Positions 2,825 through 43,500 are shown, counted from the first letter of the stretch. The stretch: DNA of 64,000 nt from Patescibacteria group bacterium (GCA_045541795.1 JAZQJV010000018.1:118236-182235), one strand, 5' to 3'. Notes: generated from the letters alone by a model not told the origin. Numbers and translations are program-made.

Positions 2825-2845
2825 TAAAAATTAAGGTAATAACAT

Positions 2846-4273: not shown

Positions 4274-4299
4274 CTTCCCGTCTCAAAAACTCCCCAATC

Positions 4300-4365
4300 A
4301 TGCTATAATCAACCTCAAGTAACTGGGTTCGGATTTCCCGCCAGAAACCACCAAAAAATAGGATA
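4300..4365. repeat. Direct repeat copy 1: TATAAT box, 15 nt, then conserved 30-mer gggttcggatttcccgccagaaaccacc
   Basis: Aligns over about 65 bp with 6835-6902. The 30-mer (4325-4352) is identical apart from one base. Confidence 0.7.
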
Positions 4366-4423
4366 TTGAAGTACGCAAATTATATCCATATAAAAACGAT
4401 ATTTTAAGCAAATTATTTGGTAT

Positions 4424-5602: not shown

Positions 5603-5608
5603 TCAAAA

Positions 5609-6736: not shown

Positions 6737-6834
6737 AGTGGCTATTACTTATAGCACAATAACGCTATTTTGTCAATACTGATAATTAATTATTATTGGC
6801 ATTTATTTTCAATTCTTGCAAAAACAACTTCATA

Positions 6835-6902
6835 CTGTTATAATCAGTTTCAAATAATTGGGTGCGGATTTCCCGCCAGAAACCACCCCAAAAAGATGGG
6901 AT
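6835..6902. repeat. Direct repeat copy 2: TATAAT box, 15 nt, then conserved 30-mer (6860-6887)
   Basis: Same spacing and sequence as copy 1. Here it serves as promoter and leader of the zinc-ribbon/TM2 gene. Confidence 0.7.
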
Positions 6903-6922
6903 TACTGCGATGAAAGTGAAAC

Positions 6923-7256
6923 ATGACAGATGAAAAAACAAAATACTGTAAACATTGCGGTTCGCTTATTGATGTAGAATTGCATAATATGCCCGAAGTG
7001 TGGCAAGCAGGTCGAACAAGTAAAAGCCGAGCTTCCAAATGTAGTGATCAATAACAATAACACCAATTCGAATATAAACTATGCTGGTGCTGTGGGGAGC
7101 GGGCGGCCTATCAATAAGTGGATAGCTTTGGGTTTATGTCTTTTTCTGGGCATATTCGGTGCTCATAAGTTTTATGAAGGAAAGATTGGCATGGGAATAT
7201 TGTATTTGTTTACATTTGGTTTGTTTAGTCTTGGTTGGTTTTTAGATATTTTTTAA
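6923..7256 (+). pseudogene. Zinc-ribbon plus TM2-domain membrane protein split by an apparent +1 frameshift
   Basis: Frame A reads MTDEKTKYCKHCGSLIDVELHN.... The TM2 frame reads ...CPKCGKQVEQVKAELPNVV then INNNN...GAHKFYEGKIGMGILYLF (TM2 domain). The two CxxC halves of one zinc ribbon sit in different frames around position 6989. Confidence 0.5.
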
Positions 7257-7355
7257 TCCTAACAAAGCCTAATCCTTATTACATATAATACTTTTACATT
7301 TGCGTTTTTATTATAACTACGTTATAATAACACAAACTTTAAGGAAAATATAAAC

Positions 7356-8429: not shown

Positions 8430-8438
8430 AAAGTAAAA

Positions 8439-9119
8439 ATGTCACAAAAAGATAATAGCAAACATTCTTGCAGAATAATCATGGCCGCATTGCTAGTGCT
8501 TCTAAGCATTGCATTGCTGCATAAATCTTTTTTTGCTGCCGCCTTCACTATCTGCTACGCATATCTCATCTCGCCACTATCAATTCAATTGGTAAGTAAA
8601 ATATGTAAGAAAGAAAATGAGAAATGGCTATATTCAACCATGACTTTTATTTTTGCTCTTTGCTGGATGACCACAATTCAAACTGGTCAGCCACAAATGG
8701 ATAATGTGTTAACGCAAAATAGTGAAAAAAACGCATCGCTAGAGAATGCGTCAACACAAAATAATGAAAAAATCGCTTCACTAGAAAAAGAGCTCCAATC
8801 AGTTAAGAACGAAAGAGATGAAATTCAAGCAAACAACCAAAAAAGAGCCATTTCAGCTGCCAAATCATATTTGGAATACAGTCCAATGTCGAGCCGAGAG
8901 TTGATTAAGCAACTCGAGTTAGAAGAATTTTCTCATGAAGACGCAGCATACGGTGTAGAGCATGCTGATATCAATTGGAACGATCAAGCATCACGGTCAG
9001 CAGTCCTCTTTATTGAGTTTGCTAATCCGTCAACCGAAGAATTAAAAAAACAACTTGAGTACGAAGGTTTCACAAGCAACGAAATAAAATTCGCCATTGA
9101 GCATAATAGTAATGGGTAA
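8439..9119 (+). CDS. Membrane-anchored protein with two C-terminal Ltp-type repeats (phage superinfection-exclusion lipoprotein family)
   Basis: The repeats AKSYLEYSPMSSRELIKQLELEEFSHEDAAYGV and ...STEELKKQLEYEGFTSNEIKFAIEH match the Ltp repeat pattern (YL..S...LI.QLEYEGF...A.YAV). An N-terminal TM segment and a coiled-coil repeat region are present. Confidence 0.55.
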   Translation: MSQKDNSKHSCRIIMAALLVLLSIALLHKSFFAAAFTICYAYLISPLSIQLVSKICKKENEKWLYSTMTFIFALCWMTTIQTGQPQMDNVLTQNSEKNASLENASTQNNEKIASLEKELQSVKNERDEIQANNQKRAISAAKSYLEYSPMSSRELIKQLELEEFSHEDAAYGVEHADINWNDQASRSAVLFIEFANPSTEELKKQLEYEGFTSNEIKFAIEHNSNG

Positions 9120-9148
9120 ATGACTCTATTGCTTCCAGTAAGGAAAGT

Positions 9149-9490
9149 ATGCCATCTACCAAAAGTTACCTTAATCACCTTCTAACTCAATTCTCGCAGT
9201 TGGATGATATTTCTTACCGCTCGATGATGGGGGAGTATATCATTTATTTCAAAGGCAAAGTAGTAGGTGGAATTTATGATGATCGATTTTTGGTCAAGAC
9301 AACAAAATCTGCACTCGCGTTGATGCCAAACACAAGCAAAGAATTACCATATCCCGGTGCGAAAGAAATGTTGTTGGTAGACGATACGGGAGACAAAGTA
9401 TTTTTACGCGAGCTGCTGACCGCGATATATGAGGAGCTGTCAGTGGTAAAGAAAAAAGAAAGCACATTAAAACGTTTATTAACGAATTGA
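9149..9490 (+). CDS. TfoX N-terminal domain protein
   Basis: MMGEYIIYFKGKVVGGIYDDRFLVK matches the TfoX_N motif (MFGGYGLY..G..FALV.DD.LYLK). Confidence 0.55.
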   Translation: MPSTKSYLNHLLTQFSQLDDISYRSMMGEYIIYFKGKVVGGIYDDRFLVKTTKSALALMPNTSKELPYPGAKEMLLVDDTGDKVFLRELLTAIYEELSVVKKKESTLKRLLTN

Positions 9491-9502
9491 CATTCATTGT
9501 CC

Positions 9503-10204
9503 TCATCTTTGACGTCTCGCTCTCTCCATATACTCTCTTTGCACCCGCATAAATAATTCCTTATCTGCCAAAAGCGTCCGGATCTCATTTAAAAAACGCT
9601 CGTACTCCGGATCAGAAAAAAAGTATTTCGCATAGCCGCCCTCACCAAATTTTTCTTTCAGGTGTTGCCAACTTCTCACAAACAATTGCTCGTCACTAAA
9701 ATCCGGATGTAAATTTTTACCATACACAAAACTTCGATACAAACAATCTTCTACGCTCGTATTTCTGTCCGCCGTGGACACAATTTTCCCGTACACGCTC
9801 CGGGGCTCGTGATTGCTTGAAGCACGATGATCTTCGATTGCCTCTTTAATCAGTTTTAATTGTTTACCGCTAAAAAAATCAGGCAAATGCTTATCCTCAC
9901 TCATCATCCGCGCAGAAATAATCTCATGCTTGGCTGGATCAATGTGATGTCCCAGATCATGATAAGCAGCCACAGTGTAGACAATGTCTAAGTTAACGTC
10001 GGTCAGTTTTTGCGCCAAGTTAATACTTCTTTCAATGACATATTTAATGTGTTTTAAATTATGAGCTGGCTCATTTTGAGCGTACTGCGGGAAAACATTT
10101 TGCTGGATGTATGTTTGTAATTTTCTATTGACGGTAGGATAAAAATTATTTTCTAACATAAACATTACTATATTATAACACGAGCAGACATTTTGAAAGC
10201 TCAA
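9503..10204 (-). CDS. HD-domain phosphohydrolase
   Basis: HD motif (TVAAYHDLGHH). Confidence 0.6.
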   Translation of the reverse strand: MSFQNVCSCYNIVMFMLENNFYPTVNRKLQTYIQQNVFPQYAQNEPAHNLKHIKYVIERSINLAQKLTDVNLDIVYTVAAYHDLGHHIDPAKHEIISARMMSEDKHLPDFFSGKQLKLIKEAIEDHRASSNHEPRSVYGKIVSTADRNTSVEDCLYRSFVYGKNLHPDFSDEQLFVRSWQHLKEKFGEGGYAKYFFSDPEYERFLNEIRTLLADKELFMRVQREYMERARRQR

Positions 10205-10269
10205 AAATATAGCGTCCAGTTTTTACAACTTTCGCTCATTTCACCTTACCGGTATGGTATAATACCCCT

Positions 10270-10695
10270 ATGCAAAAATCAAATAATCTTATTTCAATTA
10301 TTTTGTGTGTGATCGCGGTGGTGAGTCTCGCTCTCAATGTCTACTGTGTCAATCAAAAACACACTCAGCCGGCGCCATCAAGTCAACTTGCCGAGGCACA
10401 GGCGGCCTACAAACTTTACATCGTCATCCCAGATAGTGTCACTGATACAGATAATTACATCCGTGAGCTGGAAACAATACTTGCCAATCGTGTCCCCGGC
10501 TACACGATGTATCCCACTCGTGGCGGCTCGCATGAAGACGACGGCAGCATGAGTTATCAGACCACTTTGGTCTGCGAGCTTTACGGCACTGATAAACAAA
10601 CTGTCACCCAAATTGCCCATCAAGTGATGACCAGTTTTAATGTGAACAGTGTGCCGGTGGCAACTCTTAGTTCACAGTGGGAAATAATTCGTTGA
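10270..10695 (+). CDS. Hypothetical secreted or membrane-anchored protein
   Basis: N-terminal hydrophobic segment. A TGnTATAAT box ends 6 nt before the ATG, so the mRNA looks leaderless. Confidence 0.4.
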   Translation: MQKSNNLISIILCVIAVVSLALNVYCVNQKHTQPAPSSQLAEAQAAYKLYIVIPDSVTDTDNYIRELETILANRVPGYTMYPTRGGSHEDDGSMSYQTTLVCELYGTDKQTVTQIAHQVMTSFNVNSVPVATLSSQWEIIR

Positions 10696-10735
10696 CGATC
10701 ATTACTGTGTAAAACTGGTACAAAACGCTACAGGT

Positions 10736-11833
10736 ATGGTGCAAACATTGATTAGGCGCTATTGGCAAACTGCATTCGCTGTTGTCCTCGTGTGTCTGTC
10801 ACTGTGGCAGCTGAGGTCTTTGTGGACTCTTCACCAATTAGATTTTCACGTTTATTATCAAGCTGGTAAAGCTTGGCGAGATGGCGGTGATCCTTATGGC
10901 GATCTAGGTCTTGGTGAAAGTTTGACCTTCCTTTATCCCGCCCCTGCTTTGCTTATCTTTTGGCCGCTTTCATTTTTGGATCTGGAGACAGCACAAAAAG
11001 TGTGGTTGCTCATCAATCTGAGTTTGATTTTTGCCAGTGTTTATTTGTGTCTCACGCTCCATCGCACGAAAATTGCCTTAGCATCAGTAATGCTGTTTTA
11101 TGCTTTTGTCCTGCAAACATTTAGCGTCAAGTATAATCTTGGCATGGGGCAGATTAATGTTTTAGTGTTATTTTTGGTTTTATCCACCTGTCACTTGCTT
11201 TCTCGCCAGCATACAAGGTTAGCGGGTTTCTTTTTAGGGCTGGCGGGCGTCGTTAAAATCTGGCCTTTGGCCTTGTTGCCGTTTTTGTTATCTAAAAAAC
11301 AGTGGACAGTGTCTATAGTCGCCATTCTCACATTTTTGCTGCTTCAATTGCCTTGGTGGCAGACGACGGCGCGCAGTTTTGCCGCTGTCAGCGCGCACTT
11401 ACATACGGCAGGGTCAATCAGCGATGACGTCTACGACCAGTCGTTTATTGTTGCCCTTAATCGTCTGATGAATTGGTCGGGATGGAAAATAGTAGTGCCG
11501 GCCGCGATGATCGCCATTTACGCCTTTGTAAGCTATCGCTTTGGCCAATGCTTACCAATTGATGAAGTTTGCTTGTTTCTAATCATTCCCATCATTTTTG
11601 CGGCGTCGCCGGTGTACGCTCACTATCTGATTTATCTTTATCCGTGCTTATATCTATTACTCCGGCGCCATTGGCTGGCTTTGCTGTGTGCTTGGTTGTC
11701 GGTGCAAATTAAAATTGGTACGGATACAGTGTGGTATTTACGCTCGTATTATGCATGGTGGGCAGCATTGCTTTGTATTATAGCATTGGTTTATGGCGGC
11801 AGCAAAAAGAATTGGCATCGACTTCCCGTATAA
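10736..11833 (+). CDS. Polytopic membrane protein, DUF2029/GT87-like glycosyltransferase
   Basis: N-terminal DFHVYYQAG....PYGD....FLYPAPALL motif and more than 9 TM helices. Confidence 0.45.
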   Translation: MVQTLIRRYWQTAFAVVLVCLSLWQLRSLWTLHQLDFHVYYQAGKAWRDGGDPYGDLGLGESLTFLYPAPALLIFWPLSFLDLETAQKVWLLINLSLIFASVYLCLTLHRTKIALASVMLFYAFVLQTFSVKYNLGMGQINVLVLFLVLSTCHLLSRQHTRLAGFFLGLAGVVKIWPLALLPFLLSKKQWTVSIVAILTFLLLQLPWWQTTARSFAAVSAHLHTAGSISDDVYDQSFIVALNRLMNWSGWKIVVPAAMIAIYAFVSYRFGQCLPIDEVCLFLIIPIIFAASPVYAHYLIYLYPCLYLLLRRHWLALLCAWLSVQIKIGTDTVWYLRSYYAWWAALLCIIALVYGGSKKNWHRLPV

Positions 11834-12024
11834 ATTTTCTCCTGGTGTCGCGTTTCGGGTTTGTACCTAGGTAATTCCAATTTCCTTTTCGCATTTTTTA
11901 TGGTATAATCACGCATCTTACTCACTTTCACGGTCAGATCATCACGGTTTTGCTCGTGGAGGCGGGTGAAATCAGATCTTTGACAAGTGAAGTGAAATCA
12001 TACATCCTTAAAGGAGGAATTTCC

Positions 12025-14049
12025 ATGAAGTTGAAGTTTTGGGTTTTGAGTTTGGCAGCAGTGTTGTGTTTCCCCGCTCTTGCGTCTGGTGCGAGCATCG
12101 AACAGATCTTGGCTAGCATGAGTACTAGCGATAAGATCTGTCAGCTCCTGATCCCAGCCTACCGCAAGACGGCCAGTAATGACGCCACTGTCTTAAGCAG
12201 CGACGCGGCGGCACTCATCAGTCAGTATCCTTTTGGTGGTTTTATCGTTTACGGCGAAAATCTTGTCGACAATGACGCCGGCGTCCGGTTCATCCATGAC
12301 GTCCAACGTGCTAATATCAGCGCTGATACCGGCCGGCCGCAATTGCTCGTAATGACCGATCAGGAAGGAGGCCTAGTCTATAGGCTTACTCACGGCACAA
12401 GCGGCATCTCGCCGATGGCTATGGGTGCGGCTAGAGACAGCACTGCCACTCAGACGATCGCCAAAATCCTAGGCACTGAAGTGTCGGCCCTCGGCATTAA
12501 TTGTAACCTCGCTCCAGTACTCGACGTCGTCACCAATCCGCGCGGTTATATCGGCCTGCGGGGTTTCGGCATTGATCCGCAGCTGGTAGCCGATCAAGCC
12601 AGTAGCTATCTGCGCGGCCTGCGGGAGGCGGGTGTCCTAGGGGCAGTCAAACATTTCCCCGGCACAGGCAGCGCTCAGGAAAACACAGATGGGGCCAATT
12701 TGCCCGTCGTCATTAGTAAGACCCTTGAAGAGCTAGAGTCTTGCGATCTCATTCCTTTCCGCCAGGTGATCAAGCAGGGCCTGGTAGACATCGTGATGGT
12801 TTGCAATGACAGTTTTTCAAGTATAGAAACGCGCCAATTTACCGGCTCTGACGGCCAGCAATATGCCCTCCCTGCTTCAGTTTCCCCGGCGATTATCAAT
12901 GACCTGCTGCGCTGTGGGCTCGGCTTTGACGGCCTGGTGCTCACTGATGCACTCTTGGGCACAGTCATGGCCGCACAGTTTAGTGCCGTGCAAGTCTTAG
13001 AGTTGGCTTTGCAGGCAGGCGCCGACATGATGCCGTACGCTTTAGACCTCAACTCAGTCGCGAGTGTGGCGGCATTCCAGCAGGCCCTGGAGACTTTCAC
13101 TGCACGGGTGGACGCGGATCAACAATTGCAAGGTCTACTAGACACTGCTGTCAGGAGGATTTTGACGTTTAAAAGTCGCCATGAACTCCTGACTCCGTAT
13201 GCTCGCTCAGATTCTTGGGCGGCTAGTCAGGCACAGACGGTACTCCAGAATGTCAGCAACCAGGCTCATCACGACCTCCAGTGGCCGGTTGCTTTGAGTG
13301 CGGTCACGCTGGTGGAAAACCGTAATCAGGCTTTGCCGCTTAGCGGTGATGAGAGAGTGGCCATCCTCTATTATTACGCTAGTCAGGAAGCATCAGTGCA
13401 ACTTGCTCTTGACCGGCTTGTAGCTGACGGTCAGCTGACAAGCAGCCAGGCGGCAGACGTCCTTAATCTAGACGTCCACGACGAAAACTTAAGCGAACTG
13501 CTCACCGGCGTGGACACCGTAGTCATTTTAAGCTCTGTCTATTATGAATCGGAGTTGAGCCCAGATTCTCCCTCTCCTTACAGCGACGAAATCAGTATCG
13601 TGCTGCCACTCCTGTCAGAACTCGCTGGTCGTGGAGTCAAAATCATTCACGCCAGTTGTCATCTTCCTTACGACATCGGGCTGTATCTGGGGCGAGTGGA
13701 TGCCATCCTGGCTTGCTATTTGGCCAACGGGATCTCCCTTCCTATCACCACACCAGATAATCAGCCTCGTTACGGCGTTATGGTACCGGCACTCGTTTAC
13801 AAGCTTTTTGATCAGCGGGGAGATTTTTCCGCCCGACTGCCCGTAGACATTTACACTATTAATGGCGGGCAGTATCAGCTAGACGATGTCCTTTTGTCTC
13901 GCGGCTGGGGTCTGACACTGGCTGGTGACGTCATCACTGATCCGGTAGCGACTCACCAGAGCTCTAGCGGCGGCTGTAATGCTTTGTCGGGATTGTGGCT
14001 GTGGACGGGCATTCTTGTTTTCGCCTCTAGCAAAAAGTACCACTGCTGA
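12025..14049 (+). CDS. Glycoside hydrolase family 3 (beta-N-acetylhexosaminidase/beta-glucosidase-like), secreted
   Basis: KHFPGTGSAQENTDG is a GH3 motif. Signal peptide MKLKFWVLSLAAVLCFPALASGAS. A strong SD (aaggagg) sits before the ATG at about 12025. The track ORF 11950 start is probably an upstream extension. Confidence 0.7.
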   Translation: MKLKFWVLSLAAVLCFPALASGASIEQILASMSTSDKICQLLIPAYRKTASNDATVLSSDAAALISQYPFGGFIVYGENLVDNDAGVRFIHDVQRANISADTGRPQLLVMTDQEGGLVYRLTHGTSGISPMAMGAARDSTATQTIAKILGTEVSALGINCNLAPVLDVVTNPRGYIGLRGFGIDPQLVADQASSYLRGLREAGVLGAVKHFPGTGSAQENTDGANLPVVISKTLEELESCDLIPFRQVIKQGLVDIVMVCNDSFSSIETRQFTGSDGQQYALPASVSPAIINDLLRCGLGFDGLVLTDALLGTVMAAQFSAVQVLELALQAGADMMPYALDLNSVASVAAFQQALETFTARVDADQQLQGLLDTAVRRILTFKSRHELLTPYARSDSWAASQAQTVLQNVSNQAHHDLQWPVALSAVTLVENRNQALPLSGDERVAILYYYASQEASVQLALDRLVADGQLTSSQAADVLNLDVHDENLSELLTGVDTVVILSSVYYESELSPDSPSPYSDEISIVLPLLSELAGRGVKIIHASCHLPYDIGLYLGRVDAILACYLANGISLPITTPDNQPRYGVMVPALVYKLFDQRGDFSARLPVDIYTINGGQYQLDDVLLSRGWGLTLAGDVITDPVATHQSSSGGCNALSGLWLWTGILVFASSKKYHC

Positions 14050-14088
14050 TTTCACCAGTCTAGCCAAACTAGACATCTTGTCAATCGC

Positions 14089-14125: not shown

Positions 14126-15766
14126 CTATTTGGCCCCAAGTTTAGCTTCACTAGTGGCTGGTTTTTGCTCCCACAAAATAAACTCTTCTCCCCGCTGCAG
14201 GATTTGATAATTACTCAGCAATGCTGCCGGGAAAAAATAACCTTCATCATCTATCGTATAAGCAGCATACTCATATTCGGGAGCGTATTCATGCTGCATC
14301 TCACTGCTACCGTAGCGTGTTACTATCAGGTCTGGTGTCCGCTTGGCTATCATTTCGATGATCTCACTAAATACTTCTGGCGCCCCGGCGCGTGATAGTG
14401 TTGGCACCATGTAGTAACGCCCAGCATTGACAGCATTTGTCCCGTGGAAAAACGTATACCAACTATACGGATACAAAGCCAAAAGTTTTGGCGCGGGCGC
14501 ATAGCTCATGATGGCCGTCATGACATCTTGTTTTTCGGCGTAGATAAAATCCCTCGTGCTCTGGTAATTACGACTCAAAACAGCTGCTGTCGCCAGCACG
14601 CAGATCACACTATAAGCGGCAAATTCTGGCAAGTGAGGTTGCAAAATTTTCTCGTCCAATACCAATATTAGCATCAGCGCCAAAATCCCCATCACCCAAA
14701 ACCAATCATAAAAATGCCCGAAAACACCGTTAAAAACGATCCCGCCAACCAACAATGAGATCAGCAACACTTTAAACTGTACCGGGCACTTTTTCAAAGT
14801 TAAAAATAGCACGCTCACGAGTAAGTACACGAGCGACCAGGTGTGATTGGCTGGCAAATTCCACATCAAAGCCAATTGCTCCATGATTTTGAGGATTTTA
14901 GCCACCAAACTACCACCGGCTTGATTACCATAAGCACGAAAGGGAAGAAGAAAATAATGATAAATCAAATCAGCCCAAGCTCCATGAACGGTATACCAGG
15001 CAGCAACCAACAAACACACGCCCAAAAAACCGCCACCAAAGCCGGCCCAGAGCCTTATTTGGTCGCCCGCGCGCCGCTTAGAAATCCAGCCTAGGTAACC
15101 CAGTGTCACCAAAAAAATCCCAATATCTGTGTACTTACACCAAAAAACAACTCCAGCTAGCAAGCCCAAAATGACACTAGCTACCAATTTAGACTTGCTA
15201 GGCAATTTGGTCCAGTTTTGCGCCAGGAGCACACATCCCAAAGTGCATGTTAAAAGCAAACTCCCGATCGAACCCAAAGCGGGTGCAATCGGCTGTGGCG
15301 GTAGACCTAGATATACCAATACTGTGGCTAAAAGCGCCAGAACCAGCCGATATTTTTCTTGTACCCGCACTGACACTAAAATTTGGTGCAGCAAAAAGAA
15401 ATTGACTAAAGCGAGACTGCATTGCACCAAAAACATCCCCCGGAAGACATCACCAGGGTAAAGCAGACCTATAAGACCCCACCAATACATCCATATCGGG
15501 CCTTTCATGTCAAAAAAGTCCCGGTGTGGGAGCTCTCCACGCCGGATAAAATCACTATAAGTAGCGTAAATGCCAAAATCATCACCCAGACCAAAAACTG
15601 ACTGCAACGGCGAGAAAGGACTGGCAAGCGTCACCACGCCTAAAATAGCAAAGCAAGTAATGAAAATACCGAAACACAGCCGAAATTTTGTGTTTTCTTG
15701 CCAATAAGTAATTAGTTTGTGCATATTTGCTATTATATCATACCAAGTATTCTTCACGCTTAGCAA
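14126..15766 (-). CDS. GT-C fold membrane glycosyltransferase-like protein
   Basis: Of 546 aa with many TM helices. The first loop contains HRDFFDMKGPIWMYWW. Confidence 0.4.
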   Translation of the reverse strand: MLSVKNTWYDIIANMHKLITYWQENTKFRLCFGIFITCFAILGVVTLASPFSPLQSVFGLGDDFGIYATYSDFIRRGELPHRDFFDMKGPIWMYWWGLIGLLYPGDVFRGMFLVQCSLALVNFFLLHQILVSVRVQEKYRLVLALLATVLVYLGLPPQPIAPALGSIGSLLLTCTLGCVLLAQNWTKLPSKSKLVASVILGLLAGVVFWCKYTDIGIFLVTLGYLGWISKRRAGDQIRLWAGFGGGFLGVCLLVAAWYTVHGAWADLIYHYFLLPFRAYGNQAGGSLVAKILKIMEQLALMWNLPANHTWSLVYLLVSVLFLTLKKCPVQFKVLLISLLVGGIVFNGVFGHFYDWFWVMGILALMLILVLDEKILQPHLPEFAAYSVICVLATAAVLSRNYQSTRDFIYAEKQDVMTAIMSYAPAPKLLALYPYSWYTFFHGTNAVNAGRYYMVPTLSRAGAPEVFSEIIEMIAKRTPDLIVTRYGSSEMQHEYAPEYEYAAYTIDDEGYFFPAALLSNYQILQRGEEFILWEQKPATSEAKLGAK

Positions 15767-22196: not shown

Positions 22197-23384
22197 ATGC
22201 GCATTGCGATGTTTACTGATACCTTTTACCCCAAAAATGATGGCATGTCTACCAGTACGCAGCATCTGGCCGTCAGTTTAGCTGCCTCTGGTCATCAGGT
22301 CTTGATTGTCGCTCCCAAAGTTCACCGTTCTTCCCTCGATTTTACTCTTCCTGGCGTGCAAATCGTCTGGCTTACTTCCATTCCCGCGGGATTATATCCT
22401 GATCTACGCCTTGCTTCCTGGTCACCGCGCCTCCACAAAAAGCTCCACGACTTCGCGCCAGAAGTTATCCACGTCATGTCACCGATGCCAGTTAGTCTGA
22501 CGGGCATGGCTTACGCCAAAGTACAGCGCCTACCTATCGTCATGACTTTTCACACTTATTTTATGGATCCCGAATACCTCAAAGTCATTCATATAGATAA
22601 ATCCAGTCGGTCAAAATTTGTGGAAGAACTGGGCTGGGATTTGGCCAAAACTGTCCACGCTCGCGCCGATGTCACTATTGCTCCCACAGACTTTGTCGCC
22701 GCCGACCTCAAAAAGCGCAATTTCAAGCAGCCCATCCTCACTATCCCCAGCGGCGTGCAGATCAAAAAAAAACCTCTCTCACGAGAAAAAATCGCCAACC
22801 TGCGTCAATCACTAGGGATTAGTGATGATAAACGGGTGATAGTTAGTATTGGGCGTGTCAGTCAAGAAAAAAACCTGCGCGGTCTGCTGCGGGTGTTTCA
22901 AGCAGCACACCGTGAAGTCCCAGAAGCTTGCCTGCTGGTAGTCGGCGGCGGGCCTGATCTCGAAGCTGTCAAAAAGTACGCCGCTAAACTCGATCTTGCA
23001 GATAGTGTCATTTTCACCGGCGATGTCCCTCACGAAAAAGTTTTGAGCGCTGGTTATTACGCACTGGGTGAATTTTTCACCACCGCCAGCATGAGCGAAA
23101 CTCAAGGCATGACGAGCGTCGAAGCTCAGATATACGGTTTACCAGTAGTGGCTTATCACTCTAAAGGCTTACCTTTTGTCATCGGTCAAGCGGGCGTCAT
23201 GGTGACGGAAAATGACGAGTCAGCTTTGGCGAGGGCAATGATAGATTTGCTGTGTCAGCCGCATCAACTGGAAGCGTTGCGTGAAAAAGTCACTGCCAAC
23301 TTAGCTCGCTTTGACATTAACCATACTACTAAACAAATTGTAGAAGGCTACGAGCTGGCGCTGACAATTAATCATTCCCAATAA
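22197..23384 (+). CDS. Glycosyltransferase family 4
   Basis: GT-B fold with the GT4 signature E..G...E (ETQGMTSVEAQIYGLPVV). Confidence 0.7.
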   Translation: MRIAMFTDTFYPKNDGMSTSTQHLAVSLAASGHQVLIVAPKVHRSSLDFTLPGVQIVWLTSIPAGLYPDLRLASWSPRLHKKLHDFAPEVIHVMSPMPVSLTGMAYAKVQRLPIVMTFHTYFMDPEYLKVIHIDKSSRSKFVEELGWDLAKTVHARADVTIAPTDFVAADLKKRNFKQPILTIPSGVQIKKKPLSREKIANLRQSLGISDDKRVIVSIGRVSQEKNLRGLLRVFQAAHREVPEACLLVVGGGPDLEAVKKYAAKLDLADSVIFTGDVPHEKVLSAGYYALGEFFTTASMSETQGMTSVEAQIYGLPVVAYHSKGLPFVIGQAGVMVTENDESALARAMIDLLCQPHQLEALREKVTANLARFDINHTTKQIVEGYELALTINHSQ

Positions 23385-23781
23385 GATCGGCAAGACTGTC
23401 AACTTTTTTCGGCATAGTCTTGCTCATCACTGTCCACATCCGGATTTGTTTGGGATCTTCGCTAAAGTCAGCGTCAGTGACCTCACTGGTGGCGACTGCA
23501 AGACTATCGCTGCTGTCCTGCACTGCTACTTCTACCCGGCACATCCCCAGCGGGTGCAAATCACTGGCAAAAGTTCGCAAGAAAATCAGTTTACCACCTT
23601 TTTTCTGATAAGCAAAACGTTCCGGCTTAGTGACGGTACTAGCTATTCTTTCAATGAACTCATCAGGATCTTGATTGGCGTTAATGGCGATCATTTTGTC
23701 CTTTTTGTGCGCAATTTGTAAAATTATGTTCACTTTTTCCAGATGTAGGTGTTTAACATTTGTTAAACATTTGTTTAACAA
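23368..23781 (-). CDS. Hypothetical protein of uncertain reality
   Basis: ORF only. It overlaps the GT4 3' end by 17 nt and has no motif. Confidence 0.2.
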   Translation of the reverse strand: MLNKCLTNVKHLHLEKVNIILQIAHKKDKMIAINANQDPDEFIERIASTVTKPERFAYQKKGGKLIFLRTFASDLHPLGMCRVEVAVQDSSDSLAVATSEVTDADFSEDPKQIRMWTVMSKTMPKKVDSLADLIGND

Positions 23782-23956: not shown

Positions 23957-26050
23957 TTATGGCTTATTTTTGGTTTTGACCGCTGATTTGCTTTTTAGCG
24001 CAAATAGTAAACTGAGCACGCACTCCTTAATGCTTGGCCGATGATAGGCACGAGCACACACATTTTTTTTATCAAATGTCAGCCGTCGAAACGTAAAATG
24101 ACGTTCGCGTTCCAATAAAAAACGTAAAATTTTCTCGCTGGCCACTCCGGCGGCCACATATGCAGTACTGCCGAGCTGCGGCATCGCGACGCCAAAAGGA
24201 GTAATTTTTTGTCCTCGCACATACAAACCCATTTCATCACGCACGGCATTTTCTAGTCCCACCATCCGTGCTGCCACTTGCAAAAAATCACCTGAGAGCA
24301 TAGCTTGGAGTTTATCGTCACCAAGCCCAAACACCAGCGACTCACCACGCTTAGCGGCATCACTATTTTGGAAGGTAAGCTGAGCGATAGAGCCTACGTC
24401 AGATACCGCCACCACCGCCACGTTTTCTTTCCGGGCAATTTCGAGAATCGCCAATTTATCTTTGAGCGTATCTATCGCTTCTACCACTACGTCCACTTTT
24501 TGACCGGTAATGCCACCGGTCAGCCAGACAGTAAGGTTTTCTCGGTGAAAGCCATCGGCAGATAAATAAATGATTTGCGTGGGGTCTTGACGATGCAGAC
24601 GTCTGGCAAAATCCACACTTTTGGTGTCATGACTGGCGGCATCCAAAACGTCATAATTGGTGCGGTTAAAATTGGTAACATTTGGTCCTTTGGGATCACC
24701 GATACTTAGGTATCCGATCCGGCCGTCGCGGATCAAGTTTTCTGCCGTGGCGCTAGCCACACTTGCTCCGGCCACCAGTACGTGGGCCCGTGCAAAAATC
24801 AAACGAGCCTCCAGCCAAGAAATCGAGTAGGCACGGTCTTGTAGCAGCTGACCTGGGCTGGAGTTGAGTGCCAATTTCCAGGCCGGCAAAGGAGGGAATT
24901 GTACAACTGCTTCCAGTTGTCCGGTACGCGTAAAATAAAAGCCAAAAAACCCGTAATTCATTTTGTCGGTCAAATGCTCCCAAGCACTAAATTGCTCCGC
25001 TAAATATCGTGCCACCGGACCTTTGTCTGTAGAGAGGTTCTCTTTGAGTTTAGCGTAAGTACTCTCGACTAAAGTATAAAACTTGCCGCCTACATTTTCA
25101 AAAGTTTGCCCGGCAAAATTGACACTTAAATGCTGATCGCTCAGATCAAAAATCCGCGCGCTGGCTACTTCTTCCCATGACATCAAAATCGGACGTCCGG
25201 GATAAAAAGTGGCTGGATGAGCGAGTTTGTCTCGTACAAAGCTCAAATTCCATTCGTTGGTAATCAGCTCCTGCCAGATGTACTCGTCGCCAGCTGACGG
25301 CATATTAGTTGTATTTTCGCCTTGATTTTCGGTTTTATTTATACGGTCACTGCGTAAAGCAATTTCGTATGGTCTGCAGTTGTGGAAGTATCGCGGCCAA
25401 TGTGCCAGCATAAATCTCGTCTGCTCGTTGTCTGCAAGTTTGGCCTGCGCCATTTCCCGAGCCTCAATCCCGCACCGATCCATAAATGCTTTCACATTGG
25501 TGCTCATCGTGCAAGCCAACCATGATTTGGGCATATCTAAGTCTGCTGTTAAAGTCTGCACGAGACCATGTAAAATCTGGATTCTTAGCTCGTCATCATG
25601 AGTGAGGTCAAAATAAGGATGAAAGGCCAGTCGTTCAAATTCATAAGGTACTTGCCCGGTTTTTTGGTACGGCCAGCCGTCAGGCATTGTAAAAAACTGG
25701 AAGAGTTCAAGCCTCTCGTGCACTAGTCGTAGTGTCCCCAAAATTACACCTTGGCTGCAAGCAACTGCCGTTTTGATGTGGGCGTCACTGCCTGTTTCGT
25801 TAAAAGTCATGCGTTTGGGATCACTATTTGTCGCATAGCGGCCATTGTAAGCGACGCTTATAAGCGGTTGCAATAAAATGTAATCTGCGGGTTGGGCCAA
25901 ACGGTAAGAAATTCCCGCTTGCGCAAACGAGTTTTTTAAATTGCCCAAATTGCTAATTAAAGCCGCCGCATCCGCTAAAACTGCCTCGTCACTAGTGTGC
26001 TGTTTTAGCTTATTTAGATATAGTTGAGTGGTAGTTGGTGCAAAATTCAT
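23957..26050 (-). CDS. Large protein: an unknown N-terminal region of about 440 aa fused to a C-terminal E1/ThiF-like Rossmann domain with a degenerate Gly loop
   Basis: The C-terminal VLVAGASVASATAENLIRDGRIGYLSIGDPKGPNVTNFNRTNY aligns to the ThiF/MoeB pattern VLVVGAGGLGS...VD.D.V..SNLNRQ but lacks the glycines. The likely start is MNFAPTT at about 26050. Confidence 0.4.
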   Translation of the reverse strand: MNFAPTTTQLYLNKLKQHTSDEAVLADAAALISNLGNLKNSFAQAGISYRLAQPADYILLQPLISVAYNGRYATNSDPKRMTFNETGSDAHIKTAVACSQGVILGTLRLVHERLELFQFFTMPDGWPYQKTGQVPYEFERLAFHPYFDLTHDDELRIQILHGLVQTLTADLDMPKSWLACTMSTNVKAFMDRCGIEAREMAQAKLADNEQTRFMLAHWPRYFHNCRPYEIALRSDRINKTENQGENTTNMPSAGDEYIWQELITNEWNLSFVRDKLAHPATFYPGRPILMSWEEVASARIFDLSDQHLSVNFAGQTFENVGGKFYTLVESTYAKLKENLSTDKGPVARYLAEQFSAWEHLTDKMNYGFFGFYFTRTGQLEAVVQFPPLPAWKLALNSSPGQLLQDRAYSISWLEARLIFARAHVLVAGASVASATAENLIRDGRIGYLSIGDPKGPNVTNFNRTNYDVLDAASHDTKSVDFARRLHRQDPTQIIYLSADGFHRENLTVWLTGGITGQKVDVVVEAIDTLKDKLAILEIARKENVAVVAVSDVGSIAQLTFQNSDAAKRGESLVFGLGDDKLQAMLSGDFLQVAARMVGLENAVRDEMGLYVRGQKITPFGVAMPQLGSTAYVAAGVASEKILRFLLERERHFTFRRLTFDKKNVCARAYHRPSIKECVLSLLFALKSKSAVKTKNKP

Positions 26051-26126
26051 ATTTGACTTTCTGTAAAATTTGTAGTACAACATTAACAATCATAAATTAG
26101 TGATGATTATAAACGAGGAACGTTAT

Positions 26127-27791
26127 ATGTCAAGGACTAAATATGAATTTGAATTATATCAGGCTGAGCCGATGGCCGACCTGAGAGAAGTTATTAATTA
26201 TGCCGCCCAAAGTTACGCCGATAAACCGGCGTTTATTTTTCAGCAGCACCTTGAGGATGAGCCAGAAAAGATCACTTTTGCTCAGTATCGGCAAGATATT
26301 AAAGAAGTCGCCTGCGGGTTGATTAGCGCGCTCCGGATTGACGTTAGTCGTCGTGACAGCAAAAAAATCGCACTGCTTGCGCCTAATAGTTACTGGTGGT
26401 CAGTCTGCTACCTGGCCGTCACTACCATCGGTCATGTCATCGTGCCTCTAGATCCTAATTTGCCTAGTGATGATTTACTATCATTTATGAAGCGCGCGGG
26501 AGTAAGTTCGGTCATTTTCACGCCTACTATCAATGATAAAATTGCCAGCCTTAAAAATTCTTTGGTCAAAATGAAGCATTACATCGCCATGGGCGAAGCC
26601 AGTGAGGCCACAATTACACTAGAAAAAGTGCGCGCTGCCGGCATCAAGCAACTGCAAAAAAATCCGGGTCTTTATGATGAGATCACTATTTTCCCAGATA
26701 GCCTGTCGACTTTGCTTTTTACCTCTGGTACCACTTCTACACCCAAAGCAGTAATGCTCACTCACAAAAACCTCGCCTCAGAGTTGGCTGGTATGCGCCA
26801 GTTTAACGACTTCCAAAACGAACGCCTACTTTCGGTACTTCCACTTTACCACTCGTATGAGTTTATGGTAGGGTTACTTTTCCCGATCTACTGCGGCTGC
26901 ACTATTTACTATTTGCCGGGCGGCTTGCGCGCTTTCACCGATCAACTCGAGCGTGTTCGGCCGACAGTGATGGTCTTAGTACCTTTGGTGATCGAGGAAG
27001 CCTACCGCCGGGTACGAGCAAGTTTGGATGATCCCGAAGATCACGAGGCCTTGGCGGCAGCCCTAAAAAATTACTACGGCGGACAACTGACGAGAATCAT
27101 TGATGGCGGCGCGCCTATCAATAGTGACATCGCCGAGATTTACGACCGCTCCGGCATCAAGCTCCTGCAAGGCTACGGCATCACGGAATGCTCACCAGTA
27201 GTTTCCATGAATCCAGACCGCTATTACAAACCACGCAGTATCGGTATGCCGTTGCCCAATATCCGGGTGAAGATTTTTGAGCCCGATAGTGAGGGAGTGG
27301 GGGAAGTCATCGTGCGCGGGCTCACAGTCATGCTTGGCTACTATAAAGATGAGCGCAAAACTGATCAAGCCATCATTGACAATTGGTTGCACACGGGTGA
27401 TTATGGCCGCTTCGATGAAGATGGTTTTCTCTATGTGGTGGGGCGCAAAAAAAACGTTATCATCGGTAAAAACGCCAAGAAAATCTACCCGGAAGAAGTA
27501 GAATATCATCTCACCTGCTGCCCGGAAATTCGTGAGGCGATGGTTTACGGTCAGGCAGTAGATGATGATACCAAAGTCGCGGCTTTACTGGTGATTGACG
27601 AGGATAATTTCCGCCGTTACCACAGCGAACTCGGCTCTAAGCCGACACCTGAACAAATCCAAAAAGTGATGGCGGGAGTAATTGAAGCTGTCAACCAGGC
27701 GAATGTCAAATACAAGCGCATCTATAATTGGCAGATTGTCACCGCCTTACCGCGGACAGCAACAGGTAAAATAAAAAGGAATCAAGTTTGA
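26127..27791 (+). CDS. Acyl-adenylate-forming enzyme (ANL superfamily; long-chain fatty-acid CoA ligase / FAAL-like)
   Basis: Core motifs TSGTTSTPKAV, GYGITE, TGDYGRFDEDGFLYVVGRKK and a C-terminal GKIKR. An SD (acgaggaa) lies upstream. The gene is divergent from the E1-like gene across a 76-bp gap. Confidence 0.75.
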   Translation: MSRTKYEFELYQAEPMADLREVINYAAQSYADKPAFIFQQHLEDEPEKITFAQYRQDIKEVACGLISALRIDVSRRDSKKIALLAPNSYWWSVCYLAVTTIGHVIVPLDPNLPSDDLLSFMKRAGVSSVIFTPTINDKIASLKNSLVKMKHYIAMGEASEATITLEKVRAAGIKQLQKNPGLYDEITIFPDSLSTLLFTSGTTSTPKAVMLTHKNLASELAGMRQFNDFQNERLLSVLPLYHSYEFMVGLLFPIYCGCTIYYLPGGLRAFTDQLERVRPTVMVLVPLVIEEAYRRVRASLDDPEDHEALAAALKNYYGGQLTRIIDGGAPINSDIAEIYDRSGIKLLQGYGITECSPVVSMNPDRYYKPRSIGMPLPNIRVKIFEPDSEGVGEVIVRGLTVMLGYYKDERKTDQAIIDNWLHTGDYGRFDEDGFLYVVGRKKNVIIGKNAKKIYPEEVEYHLTCCPEIREAMVYGQAVDDDTKVAALLVIDEDNFRRYHSELGSKPTPEQIQKVMAGVIEAVNQANVKYKRIYNWQIVTALPRTATGKIKRNQV

Positions 27792-27847
27792 GCTTGCATT
27801 TTGCGCGCAAACGTTATATAATATTAAAAAGTTGTCTGAAAGGGGTT

Positions 27848-28243
27848 ATGTCAGATAATGCAAAAAAAATCTTACTCGTAGAAGATGAAACAGAACTGCG
27901 AGAGCTATACAAAATCCTCTTACAAGGGGAGAATTATCAGGTAGATGCTGTCGGTGACGGCAAAGCCGGACTGGAAGCAATGAGTCGCGGCGGCTATGAT
28001 TTGGTCCTTTTGGATATCATGCTGCCATTCATTGACGGACTAGATGTGCTTGAGCGCAATGCTAAATCGGATATTGCTACCAAGCAGCCCAATAAATCCG
28101 TGGTTTTGCTTACCAATTTGGCTCAAGACCAGACCATTGCCAAGGGGCTGGAGTACGGCGTGCGTGGTTACATGATCAAAAGTGACTACAACCCAGAACA
28201 GCTATTGGAAGCGGTCGCTGATTTCATCGCCAATCCGGCTTAG
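27848..28243 (+). CDS. Stand-alone response-regulator receiver (CheY-like) domain protein
   Basis: KILLVEDE, the phospho-acceptor Asp in LVLLDIMLP, and the conserved Lys in GYMIKS. No output domain. It overlaps or abuts the ANL gene, so the two are likely co-transcribed. Confidence 0.7.
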   Translation: MSDNAKKILLVEDETELRELYKILLQGENYQVDAVGDGKAGLEAMSRGGYDLVLLDIMLPFIDGLDVLERNAKSDIATKQPNKSVVLLTNLAQDQTIAKGLEYGVRGYMIKSDYNPEQLLEAVADFIANPA

Positions 28244-28250
28244 GTGCCGT

Positions 28251-28631
28251 TTACATCCCATCTACCAATGTGGGGACACTGATGCCACTAGCATCTGTGC
28301 CGAAGGCCACCGTCAGGACGAGCTGGAAAACGGCCCAGGTGCATGCCAACACTAAAATACCGATAATGGCGGCTAAAATCTGATTACGGGCGTCTTCGAC
28401 TTTACCCTTATCGCCGCCAGAAGCGATCCAGTGAATGGCGCCCATGATGAGGTGATAAAGAGTTAGTAAAGCCGCTACCATGATAGTGAGCGTAAACACG
28501 TTATGCAAAAGCGAGCCAGCACTGGGGTTGATTTTCAGACCGCCGACGCCATTGGGATCGAGATCGTTGAGATTAAAAACCCCCGCCGAAAACAGCGGAA
28601 TACTTGCCAGTTGACCGTACTTTTTATTCAT
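28251..28631 (-). CDS. TrbC/VirB2-like pilin family protein (paralog 1)
   Basis: Of 126 aa, with two hydrophobic helices separated by WIASGGDKGKVEDARNQ. Same architecture as 40090-40563 (MISGGNPSGFETAKNT). Confidence 0.45.
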   Translation of the reverse strand: MNKKYGQLASIPLFSAGVFNLNDLDPNGVGGLKINPSAGSLLHNVFTLTIMVAALLTLYHLIMGAIHWIASGGDKGKVEDARNQILAAIIGILVLACTWAVFQLVLTVAFGTDASGISVPTLVDGM

Positions 28632-40089: not shown

Positions 40090-40563
40090 ATGAAAAAATG
40101 GAGTGTGATCGCAGTTTTAATTTTGAGCCTGTTTGCGGGACGGCCAGCACATGCTGCCCCTTACGAAAGTTGGAAGAGTTCCAAAATGTGCACAGGCGCT
40201 AAAGACACGCTTTCTGAAGACGTTGCCACTATCGCTGGTATCGTTTGCCTGATCGCCAATGCCTTAAATGCCGTCCTGACGCTGTTTTCCTTCGTCGGCT
40301 TCCTCATGTTTGTGTATGCCAGTTTTATGCTCATGATCTCTGGCGGTAATCCCAGCGGCTTTGAAACAGCGAAAAATACCTTTACTTACGCAATTTTTGG
40401 CTTCGTGCTGGCTTTATCATCATTTGTGATCATCAATCTTATTTCTTATTACACTGGCCTCAATAGCTTCTTTGTCATCAAATTCTTGCCCAATACTATT
40501 TCTGGCAGCGCCAGCAGTGGCGGTACAGGCGGTAGCGGTACGGGAGGTACAAGCGGGCCATAA
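40090..40563 (+). CDS. TrbC/VirB2-like pilin family protein (paralog 2)
   Basis: Signal peptide followed by two hydrophobic helices flanking MISGGNPSGFETAKNT. Its stop and the next gene's ATG are 1 nt apart. Confidence 0.45.
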   Translation: MKKWSVIAVLILSLFAGRPAHAAPYESWKSSKMCTGAKDTLSEDVATIAGIVCLIANALNAVLTLFSFVGFLMFVYASFMLMISGGNPSGFETAKNTFTYAIFGFVLALSSFVIINLISYYTGLNSFFVIKFLPNTISGSASSGGTGGSGTGGTSGP

Positions 40564-40564
40564 T

Positions 40565-43500
40565 ATGCGCATTGATAAATTCTTACCGGCAAAACGTTGG
40601 CAAACTGTTATCATTGGGGTCAGTTTGGTTTTTGGCTGCATGATGTCGCTGCAAAATTTGCACCTAGACCTAGTTTCTGACGTCTGGAGTGCGCAGTATC
40701 AGGATGTTTATAGTCAAGTGATGAGTATTTTCCAGTCACGAGGTGAGACCATCCCTACTAATGTCGCCGCCGACATCATCGAGCGTTCTGGCGGTGATCA
40801 AAATCAAGCTATAGCTACTCTGGAAAAGTATCTCAACGTCTACAAAGCTTTGCAAGCGCGTAATCCTGATGTCTCTTCTCTAGTCATCAGTTTGATCGCC
40901 AAACAGTACCCAGATAATTACTCACAGGCCAGCACAGCTTTGTCGCAGACGGTCTCGACAGCTAAGCAGATCCAGGACTACCAAAATATAAATACTATTG
41001 CGGCGCAAATTGTGGCCGCTTTAGGGATTAATAATAGTTTCACGCAGACACTCTCAGACGCTTATGACGTCGTCAATAATGCCAGTAATATGGGCCAGCA
41101 GATGAACGTCAACAATATCGCCGCTCAAATTTTGTCTGCGCTCGATCTTACCGGAGAACTATCCTCGGGTTTTGGCAGCCAGGCTGATTTGCAAAATACG
41201 CTTCAAAGCATGACTAGATCGTCCCTCTTGCAAAGTCAAGACGCTAAGGATGTCCTCGGTGCCTTAGACATTTTCACGCCGGGTAATTTCTCGTCTGATG
41301 CCGGCAGCGTGAGTAAAATTGCCAGTGATCTTTTAGGCGGAAAACTTTCAGACACGGTCAAAAGTGTGGTAGATAAAGAAATTGCCGAAAGTTTGGGCGC
41401 GCTTAATCTAGGTAGTTTGTCTGGTCTTAGCGAAGGTAAAGGGAATTTTTCTGGCATTCTTGAGCAGGTGACATCTAAAACTGCCGGTGAAGCTGGCAAA
41501 TACAAGGATGTCTACGAAACCGTCACCAAAGGTATGAGCACTCAGGACATCGTCAAAATGGGCACCGACAAAATCAAAGACAGTATCTTAGATAATTCTA
41601 CCCTCGACCAGGAAAAAGCCGCTCAGGAAACCAAAAAAGAACTTGACCAAGAGGCAAAAAAAGCCGTAGACGAGGAAAAAAAACTACAGGATGAAGGATT
41701 GATTGATCCGTCGAGCGTACCAAGCAGTAGCCCTTCGCCTTCTTCAACTCCCGATCCTTCAGCCAGTCCTTCACCATCACCTTCCGCAAGTCCTTCTCCT
41801 GGTGCCAGCCCGTCGCCAGGGGCGAGCCCGAGTCCCTCTCCGTCTGCTAGTCCGTCACCGAGCGCTTCGCCGTCGCCGTCAGCGTCACCGAAAGCAACTG
41901 AATACATCAGAAGTGGTGCACAGGGATCCTTTATCACCGCTATCATAGATAAACTCAGAATGAGCGGCACGGCCGAAAATATTAAGGAAGGTTTTGCTGC
42001 TAAAATGATCGCCAAGAATTTATCGCTGGAGGGATATGAAGCCTATCATATCAAAACTGTCAGCCGTTTGCAGCCCTATATGAATTTTTCTCATCGCCGT
42101 AACAATGTAGATTTTAGCCAAGCCAAAGTACCCCTCATGCGCAATAGTAACTACAAACCTGAACGGCTTAATTCTGCCGAAAATTATTACGGCTATAATG
42201 CCCGGGTAGGAGTGAATGACACTGATATCCTTACTGAGTCAGCCTGGGTCGCCAAAATGTCGCAGCCTGTCAAATGCAGCCTCAAAGCCGCCAATCTTGC
42301 CTATATCGTGCGCACTTGCGACATTCTTCATGAAGACACATGCGAAGGTCTATACCTGACCGCTGATGGCAGTGAAACCATCAAAGATACTAAGATCAAA
42401 GTCCATGATTTGGCTCTTGCGGTGACAGCCATTCTCATCACTGATGGCAGCCAACGTGACGAGTTAATCAATGCGGTGGCGCTCGCTTTGGCGACGGGCA
42501 AAGGCGATCTTAGCGGCATCATGGGACAAGTAACCAATATTATTAATAGTATTGGCGGTGAGAATTCAGATGTACTGTCGCGTTTGCTGGCTATGGCTTC
42601 AGATAAAGTCATGGAACCTATCTATGATAACCGGATTCCTTTTTGTGAGACACTTTATAATACTCCAGCCACAGCGGCTACGGATGAGACGGGCTTACTG
42701 CTAGAAATGGCCAAAGGCAACATCCAAGCGGAGGATATGGGCAAAATTTATCTGCGCTGGGCGATGGAAAAATTGGACTTTTACCTGGCACGTGAATACC
42801 GCACTGCATACCTAGTGCAAACTACAAGAATCTGCCCGGTACGTCGGCAATTTATCTGCTCTAAATCCTCACCCGTATATAAGTATGCACCAGCACCCAC
42901 AGGCACCTGCTTAGTACAACTCCCCTGTATACCTGGTATCACCCCAGATCAGGTGCGTGTATATCCATTCAAAATCCCAGATCTTTTCACCAATAAGAAT
43001 TTTTGCAAAACGTCTGATCTAGAATATCCTGGGCTCTTGAATGACGTCAAATGTGAGCCCTCTGAGCAATTCCAATATGCAGACATGATACAAGAATATC
43101 ACGATCCGGCACTTTTACAAAAAAATTTCCTCATGAATATGGAGCAGATCCGCGCTGAACGTGAAGAGTTTTTAGCAAAACGCAAAACTCGCGCCCAGCA
43201 CTCTGCCGAAGCCTGTACGGCCAATAGTGCTACCACTCTTGCCAAAATGCAAGAGGCCGACTTAACATGCACCGACAAAAATGTGCTTAGCGGTGATCTG
43301 ATTGACTGTGAAAACTGCAATGGCGAAGCCAGACGAGTCAAAGCGGCTCTAGTGAAAGTCATCAACGGTGCCATCAAACATGGCGAACTTTACAAAATCG
43401 AAAATCCCAACGGCAACTCGCCGGGTACTGATGATGTCAGCGGCGGGCTTAGTAGTTCCGCCATTACCACTTCTGCCGTGAATCCGCTCGAACCAGCTAT

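Follow-up and report, generated by a model that had tools for sequence, protein, structure and literature searches.

A fused GNAT–ThiF protein with a dedicated acyl ligase and a stand-alone receiver: a probable N-acyl amino acid cyclisation module in a Patescibacteria group bacterium

The discovery of bacterial N-acyl oxazolones dates back only to 2021. Published oxazolone biochemistry comprises three systems: OxzAB of Pseudoalteromonas rubra, the founding one (bioRxiv 10.1101/2020.06.11.147165); TyzACB of M. tuberculosis (Rv2336, Rv2338c and Rv2337c), which makes tyrazolones (PMC10404671); and TrzAS (Rv1356c/Rv1355c), in which TrzA and TrzS, the Rv1355c protein, make N-acyl tryptazolones (PMC12856293). 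In these systems, a FeeM/LuxI-like acyltransferase uses acyl-CoA to N-acylate an aromatic amino acid (PMC10404671, PMC12856293), a ThiF-like enzyme cyclises the N-acyl amino acid with ATP, and a nitroreductase-type flavin oxidase desaturates the product (PMC10404671, PMC12856293, PMC12596934). A 2025 review lists the oxazolone cyclase as the only ThiF-like enzyme with a known small-molecule substrate (PMC12596934). Here, we analysed a locus at 23957-28631 of a 64,000-nt stretch of DNA from Patescibacteria group bacterium GCA_045541795.1 (JAZQJV010000018.1:118236-182235), hereafter the window, to which all coordinates refer unless another locus is named. The locus encodes a large fusion protein, a divergent ANL-superfamily ligase, a stand-alone CheY-like receiver and a pilin. 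A preliminary description had proposed an undescribed modification system; we found instead that the fusion pairs a GNAT-fold domain with a ThiF-like domain, a pairing that matches the published OxzAB, TyzACB and TrzAS small-molecule pathways (PMC10404671, PMC12856293). We propose that the ligase, GNAT and ThiF genes probably couple a fatty acid to an amino acid and then close a ring on the resulting N-acyl amino acid at the expense of ATP.

The large open reading frame (ORF; 23957-26089, minus strand) counts 710 amino acids (aa) from a TTG codon, but every homologue opens with the residue equivalent to M14, which makes ATG 26050 the real start and gives a protein of 697 aa. Its C-terminal part (23957..24817, minus strand, stop codon at 23957-23959) was assigned to the ThiF/E1-like adenylating, or cyclase, domains by Pfam, NCBIfam, a structure model and hhalign. 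The Pfam ThiF match covers residues 434-677 with 26.3 bits, slightly below the 28.1-bit cut-off. In the model of the cyclase part (predicted local distance difference test, pLDDT, 81.6; predicted template modelling score, pTM, 0.84), the C-terminal 286 aa adopt the E1/ThiF fold, and the Foldseek matches include UBA5, PaaA, BubCD and ThiF, in agreement with the E1-like domain described before. A further Foldseek match was AclA (9egb), on which a literature search brought nothing useful. The closest solved structure by sequence is TcdA (E 6e-6), and the best NCBIfam match of the window protein is the Rv1355c (TrzS) family.

A family-profile search of 1.84 billion representative proteins returned 1219 matches at E <= 1e-3, among them a wider family of 400-450-aa proteins that carry both the N-extension described below and a G-A-S-V-G loop. 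All ten next-tier matches that we sampled belong to the NCBIfam Rv1355c family, some stand-alone and some fused to a flavin oxidase, and three of the ten exceed its cut-off (706-734 against 476 bits). For intermediate family members, scores are 76-115 bits with the Rv1355c model but stay below 40 bits with ThiF models. Moreover, hhalign aligned the family profile with stand-alone Rv1355c-type proteins over 294 columns (99.8%, E 1.8e-29). Judged by these profile comparisons, the ThiF-like domain is closest to the ATP-dependent oxazolone cyclases of the Rv1355c (TrzS) clade.

Between the fusion point and the ThiF-like domain lies a family-specific alpha/beta extension of about 160 aa (24818..25294, minus strand), which all stand-alone 445-aa homologues share. 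Its alignment with the N-terminal region of stand-alone Rv1355c-family proteins begins at about core residue 64, and the hhalign alignment takes in its second half. We also considered the three strands and helices of this extension as a peptide-recognition element, a candidate that we dropped because the region aligns with the Rv1355c-family N-terminus. The glycine loop of the domain, AGASVAS (24752-24772, minus strand; ORF residues 440-446), had been read as degenerate, in the manner of non-catalytic E1 domains of pathways for peptides that are made by the ribosome and then modified after translation (RiPPs). It reads AGLSVGS in Rv1355c-family members, and G-x-S-V-G/A is common to both; the loop is not degenerate: it is invariant across the family and a conserved signature of the Rv1355c branch. 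Measured against the GxGxxG loop of ThiF, MoeB and E1 enzymes, G-A-S-V-A-S is one residue shorter. The adenylation residues are invariant across 14 aligned sequences (the ribose Asp, NxNR, Lys, a second Asp and the following Lys), and the invariant cyclase residues are G, S, D, NxNR, K, D, K and Q. The second, catalytic-type Asp (D540 in ORF numbering; 24470-24472, minus strand) matches D219 in the alignment of family members, which lies two residues off D217 of TrzS, and a D217A change in TrzS abolishes cyclase activity (PMC12856293). Only two Cys occur in the domain, neither of them conserved, and there is no CxxC, the zinc motif of canonical activators of ubiquitin-like proteins. The window protein thus carries a ThiF-like domain of the Rv1355c/TyzB branch with its adenylation residues intact.

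The N-terminal part of the fusion had been called motif-less. We found that it consists of a GNAT-fold domain (25352..26050, minus strand), which we annotate as a FeeM/LuxI-like N-acyl amino acid synthase analogous to OxzA and TyzA, followed by the extension homologous to the Rv1355c-family N-terminus. The model of the N-domain (pLDDT 81.5) shows a GNAT fold, FeeM ranks third among its Foldseek matches, and Pfam gives weak matches to FeeM and T_hemolysin. An EFERLAFHP block is invariant in the domain, and we take it to resemble the E-x-S-R-F/L-A block of LuxI-type synthases. The linker to the cyclase part (25295..25351, minus strand; pLDDT below 50 at N-domain residues 234-251) marks the fusion point and lies where the split-gene homologues end and begin. 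Searching a collection of 5.8 billion sequences for the large protein yielded only 15 homologues, four of them full length and 11 of about 445 aa that cover only residues 265-710; in those 11 the missing N-terminal part is a separate gene of 237-249 aa immediately upstream. A FeeM/LuxI-like GNAT-fold synthase is therefore fused with the cyclase or adjoins it, as in oxazolone synthetase systems. Upstream of one wider-family member (L023/L024) is a protein that carries a GTLRM-type motif; the N-domain profile scored 4 bits against it, which is not significant.

The third component, the ANL-superfamily acyl-CoA/acyl-AMP ligase (26127..27791, plus strand; AMP-binding 234 bits), likely starts at ATG 26127, with a GAGGA ribosome-binding site ahead of it. 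Its best NCBIfam match is a long-chain-fatty-acid--CoA ligase subfamily, below that model's cut-off, and its relatives in the PDB are acyl/aryl-CoA ligases. The motifs FTSGTxSxPK, GYGxxE, TGD and GK[IV]KR are kept in ten orthologues (FTSGTTSTPK, GYGITE and GKIKR in the window), and the protein is of the acyl-CoA synthetase type down to the catalytic Lys of motif A10. It appears to be a generic acyl-CoA ligase for which we propose fatty-acid activation. In all ten module orthologues, the hinge residue in motif A8 (27450-27470) is an Asn in place of the usual Asp (GRKKN against GRxKD). The ANL gene always adjoins the GNAT/ThiF genes. At one locus (L022 5827-7382) it is split into pieces of 422 aa and 69 aa, possibly by a frameshift or as a pseudogene, with the GNAT, cyclase, kinase and receiver genes there intact.

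The preliminary description had suggested looking across genomes for the trio of E1-like protein, ligase and receiver, and the trio does recur. The order REC <- ANL <-|-> GNAT -> ThiF occurs at 11 distinct loci, the window included, with flanks as varied as enolase, SmpB, PMT, a diversity-generating retroelement and thioredoxin reductase. Compared with the window proteins, the cyclase part is 42-69% identical, the N-domain 29-59%, the ANL 41-73% and the receiver 65-85%. The receiver gene is the most conserved of the module and follows the ANL gene at all ten loci with flank available. At one of these loci (L020 4982-6792), the retroelement (bAvd and reverse transcriptase) lies directly beside the receiver gene. 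A metagenome scan returned three loci. In L027 the cyclase gene is followed by a co-directional ANL gene whose product is 45% identical to the window ANL; in L026 a GNAT-like gene, a cyclase gene and an ANL gene form an operon, with an ANL only 28% identical to that of the window. ANL is thus linked to the cyclase in three arrangements: divergent (11 loci), co-directional (L027) and as an operon (L026). The L026 cluster (6450-14083 of a 50.8-kb metagenome contig) comprises a helix–turn–helix (HTH) regulator, the GNAT-like protein (320 aa), the cyclase (432 aa) and the ANL (535 aa), followed by a convergent MFS transporter and a double-HTH protein, and looks like a classic small-molecule export cluster. 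The host of the module is probably a gut lineage of Patescibacteria, that is, of the candidate phyla radiation (CPR). The window has no rRNA gene, and a LepA search supports this placement tentatively, its closest named relatives being Microgenomates and Patescibacteria bacteria at 60-65% identity.

Outside that lineage, Parabacteroides and Tannerella carry the pair of N-domain and cyclase genes only, with neither ANL nor receiver. These Bacteroidota also carry a TyzC-like flavin oxidase of 380-389 aa (L006 11423-12565; L005 19251-20420), which adjoins the pair in Tannerella and lies 8 kb off in Parabacteroides. It matches the oxidase half of the Rv1355c family with E values of 1e-46 to 1e-49 and the ThiF–oxidase fusion families with about 1e-87; all matches together span 1e-46 to 1e-89. 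The Bacteroidota relatives of the window pair thus hold the full triad of acyltransferase, cyclase and oxidase. At a further locus (L030), a 366-aa gene follows a TyzB-like ThiF gene, and its identity as an oxidase could not be shown.

Based on these genes, we infer the substrates, the ring closure and the product as follows. First, the ANL would activate a free, probably scavenged, fatty acid to acyl-AMP and on to acyl-CoA or another thioester; a dedicated ANL would make sense if the host were unable to make acyl-CoA itself. The FeeM/LuxI-like GNAT domain would then put the acyl group on the alpha-amino group of a free amino acid, giving an N-acyl amino acid. The ThiF-like domain with ATP would adenylate the carboxylate of that compound, upon which the amide oxygen would attack and close a 5(4H)-oxazolone ring, in the way that TyzB, OxzB and TrzS do it, the last two through their ThiF domains. 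With no gene for a flavin oxidase in the vicinity, the pathway would stop at the saturated oxazolone or yield a derivative of the activated species. We hold the pathway as a whole to be probable and no more than that, because the similarity to characterised enzymes is remote and the chemistry is predicted only; an oxazolone as the specific product is a claim that we hold less firmly.

Several comparisons place this scheme among known systems. Like TyzACB, the window has a FeeM/LuxI-like synthase beside a ThiF-like ATP-dependent cyclase, the separate TyzC-like oxidase has its counterpart in the Bacteroidota relatives of the window protein, and a structural search with the acyltransferase gives the same kind of result for both, FeeM and then acyl-homoserine lactone synthase (PMC10404671). 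Unlike TyzACB, the window has acyltransferase and cyclase in one protein and the extra extension of about 160 aa on the cyclase, lacks an oxidase and adds a dedicated ANL and a receiver, with a kinase in relatives; the sequence similarity between the two is remote. The oxazolone synthetases of TrzAS and OxzAB, which are ThiF–nitroreductase fusions, share with the window a ThiF-like domain of the same superfamily branch and an acyltransferase gene immediately upstream (PMC12856293; bioRxiv 10.1101/2020.06.11.147165). They differ in the fusion partner, which is the oxidase there and the GNAT domain here, and in their hosts, which are Proteobacteria or Actinomycetota and not, as is probable for the window, a Patescibacteria gut bacterium. 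The NasY/ThiF/nitroreductase clusters for N-acyl dehydrotyrosines (stieleriacines, kyonggic acids and thalassotalic acids) follow the same logic of synthase plus ThiF and include a nitroreductase and methyltransferases, whereas none has an ANL or a two-component pair, and the role of their ThiF protein is still termed enigmatic (PMC12479983). TcdA, the tRNA ct6A synthase, likewise performs an ATP-dependent cyclodehydration on the carboxylate of an N-acylated amino acid, but its substrate is tRNA, its loop is a canonical GxGGxG and it lacks a GNAT partner. What is new in the present module is thus the GNAT–ThiF fusion, the N-extension of the cyclase, the missing oxidase, the dedicated ANL, the linkage to kinase and receiver, and the host phyla.

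Some of these observations weigh against the proposed pathway. The sequence similarity to the characterised oxazolone enzymes is remote: with 41 bits under the Rv1355c model (cut-off 476), the window protein is not an equivalog, and the margin over TcdA (35 bits) and ThiF (30 bits) is slight. The relation of the GNAT domain to OxzA, TyzA and TrzA is one of modelled fold only. The characterised oxazolone clusters all have a flavin oxidase, whereas tblastn found no such homologue, of the nitroreductase superfamily, in the window or in the available DNA of any CPR-like locus. Finally, the known oxz, tyz and trz clusters lack an ANL, which the window has.

The missing oxidase also bears on an alternative in which the N-acyl amino acid is made and the ThiF-like domain adenylates its carboxylate for ligation, with no cyclisation, to an amine, an alcohol, a lipid head group or a cell-surface acceptor, the product being a lipo-dipeptide or a lipid conjugate. 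No flavin oxidase is present that could stabilise an oxazolone by desaturation, ThiF-like enzymes pass acyl-adenylates to many nucleophiles (PMC12596934), and producers of stieleriacine, kyonggic acid and thalassotalic acid have ThiF genes with no oxazolones observed (PMC12479983). Moreover, the family has its own 160-aa extension and forms a branch separate from the characterised cyclases. However, an oxidase-dead TrzS variant still releases the saturated cyclised product, that is, the saturated oxazolone (PMC12856293), profile comparison puts the oxazolone-cyclase clade nearest, and no acceptor or transferase gene is conserved in the module loci. We therefore regard ligation in place of ring closure as unlikely.

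We also considered whether ANL–receiver and GNAT–ThiF are functionally unrelated and held side by side by inherited synteny, with the ANL serving general lipid scavenging. The Bacteroidota pairs without ANL and receiver would fit this, most module-bearing genomes seem to be of one broad lineage, and at L018 a 3.3-kb insertion parts the two halves. Against it, the flanks differ at almost every locus and yet the four genes stay together, at the 42-69% identity given above for the cyclase part; the ANL is also linked in two other gene orders, one of them with a different ANL subfamily in an operon with an MFS exporter; and the divergent promoters overlap within 76 bp. An association through synteny alone seems quite improbable to us. 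Weakest of all, and very improbable, is a RiPP-like or protein-lipidation system in which the GNAT domain acylates a peptide or protein, perhaps the pilin, and the E1-like domain binds a peptide or modifies a C-terminus: peptides or proteins are the substrates of most characterised ThiF-like enzymes, the RiPP E1-like protein PaaA is among the Foldseek matches (ranked no better than other E1-like folds) and the pilin gene adjoins the module in the window and in L001, but it does not at nine of the 11 loci, the module loci conserve no small ORF, YcaO or protease, the extension aligns with the Rv1355c-family N-terminus rather than with any established element for peptide binding, the loop and catalytic residues are of the kind found in active small-molecule cyclases, and the Bacteroidota relatives hold the small-molecule triad.

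The co-transcribed receiver would couple the proposed pathway to a phosphorelay, together with a seven-transmembrane (7TM) histidine kinase that is encoded alongside in many relatives. The receiver (27848..28243, plus strand, start ATG 27848; 131 aa) consists of Response_reg alone (74 bits), with no output domain, and has the canonical residues E12/D13, D56 (the phospho-acceptor), T89 and K111; identical entries of its 131-aa sequence exist in NCBI and JGI. The phosphorelay link that had been suggested before was borne out in relatives: a histidine kinase of about 720 aa (HisKA_7TM, HisKA, HATPase_c) lies directly beside the cyclase gene in six of the 11 loci. In the 64-kb window itself, tblastn found no histidine kinase, second pilin, second ANL or second GNAT. 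Canonical Rv1355c-family ThiF genes elsewhere adjoin two-component genes in two of three sampled cases (L029 and L028). On the unrelated contig L029 (2480-7886), the order is PaaK-like ligase (506 aa), ThiF-like gene, 7TM-GAF kinase and receiver; the kinase is homologous to the module kinase over its 7TM and catalytic parts, and no GNAT lies within the 4-kb flank on either side of the ThiF-like gene. It looks like a parallel unit of ligase, ThiF, kinase and receiver. At L028 (960-3809), a ThiF–flavin-oxidase fusion of the Rv1355c family (732 bits) is divergent from an adjoining stand-alone receiver. These cases, from a small sample of three, suggest that the two-component association is not an accident of one lineage.

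We tentatively consider a lipid-signal circuit, which we think possible though doubtful: from a fatty acid of the host and an amino acid, ANL and GNAT–ThiF would build an N-acyl oxazolone, saturated and labile, or a derivative of it, this product would be the ligand of the 7TM kinase, and the kinase would phosphorylate the receiver, all in a bacterium of reduced genome. The phosphorelay may either control the pathway or, as in this circuit, sense its product. The arrangement may be likened to LuxM/LuxN and CqsA/CqsS, where synthase genes for an acyl-derived autoinducer lie beside a gene for a polytopic membrane histidine kinase. To our knowledge, neither pair has any sequence relationship to the module, and the module receiver is a separate single-domain protein.

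As for the layout of the locus, all four genes of the preliminary description are where it placed them, with the ANL gene divergent from the fusion gene across exactly 76 bp (26051-26126) and the pilin gene convergent with the receiver gene across a 7-bp gap. The promoter of the fusion gene (TTGACA-16-TATAAT, 26133-26106, minus strand) is of the sigma-70 type with a 12/12 match; to include it, we extended the intergenic feature to 26133, 7 bases into the ANL gene. It overlaps the start codon and ribosome-binding site of the ANL gene, and the two transcription units are therefore physically entangled. The T4SS_pilin gene (28251-28631, minus strand; PF18895, 28.4 bits against a cut-off of 26.6) has its own sigma-70-type promoter, again with a 12/12 match (TTGACA-17-TATAAT, 28684-28656, minus strand). 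The pilin had been suggested as the substrate, a role that is not supported: its gene is no part of the conserved module, adjoins it nowhere but in the window and in L001, a relative with 64% identity, and has that promoter to itself. The earlier statement that no ubiquitin-like partner is nearby holds, as there is no ORF of 30-130 aa ending in Gly-Gly in 20-32 kb of the window. Just beyond the end of the large gene lies a tRNA-Glu gene, and between it and a GT4 gene an ORF of 137 aa (orf137, 23368-23781) that may not be a real gene. We dropped orf137 as a module member, since it has no Pfam match and no counterpart in any related locus.

Elsewhere in the window, defence-type genes cluster in a low-GC stretch at 1736-9119 (0.34-0.38, compared with about 0.47 elsewhere), which is probably an acquired defence island. 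It includes two YhcG/DUF1016 PDDEXK nucleases (1736-2824 and 5609-6736), a Schlafen AlbA_2 protein (2846-4273) and a homologue of Shedu SduA (4424-5602); a secreted nuclease with SNase and Excalibur domains and an Ltp-like lipoprotein come after these genes. Two large ORFs, at 40472-44137 (1221 aa) and 14126-15766 (546 aa), had no Pfam match at E <= 1e-4.

Related N-acyl tyrosine producers have been reported from Pseudomonadota, Actinomycetota and Planctomycetota, and the locus described here carries the gene logic of oxazolone systems into Bacteroidota and a probable Patescibacteria gut lineage. If the proposed pathway is right, it would be among the few specialised-metabolite pathways kept by a bacterium of strongly reduced genome. 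What N-acyl oxazolones do physiologically has been described as a major open question, signalling being one of the proposals (PMC12856293), and the repeated placement of the module beside a 7TM kinase and a receiver offers a concrete receptor candidate for the signalling hypothesis. Should the circuit exist, oxazolone-type lipids would be cell–cell or symbiont–host signals with a dedicated receptor.

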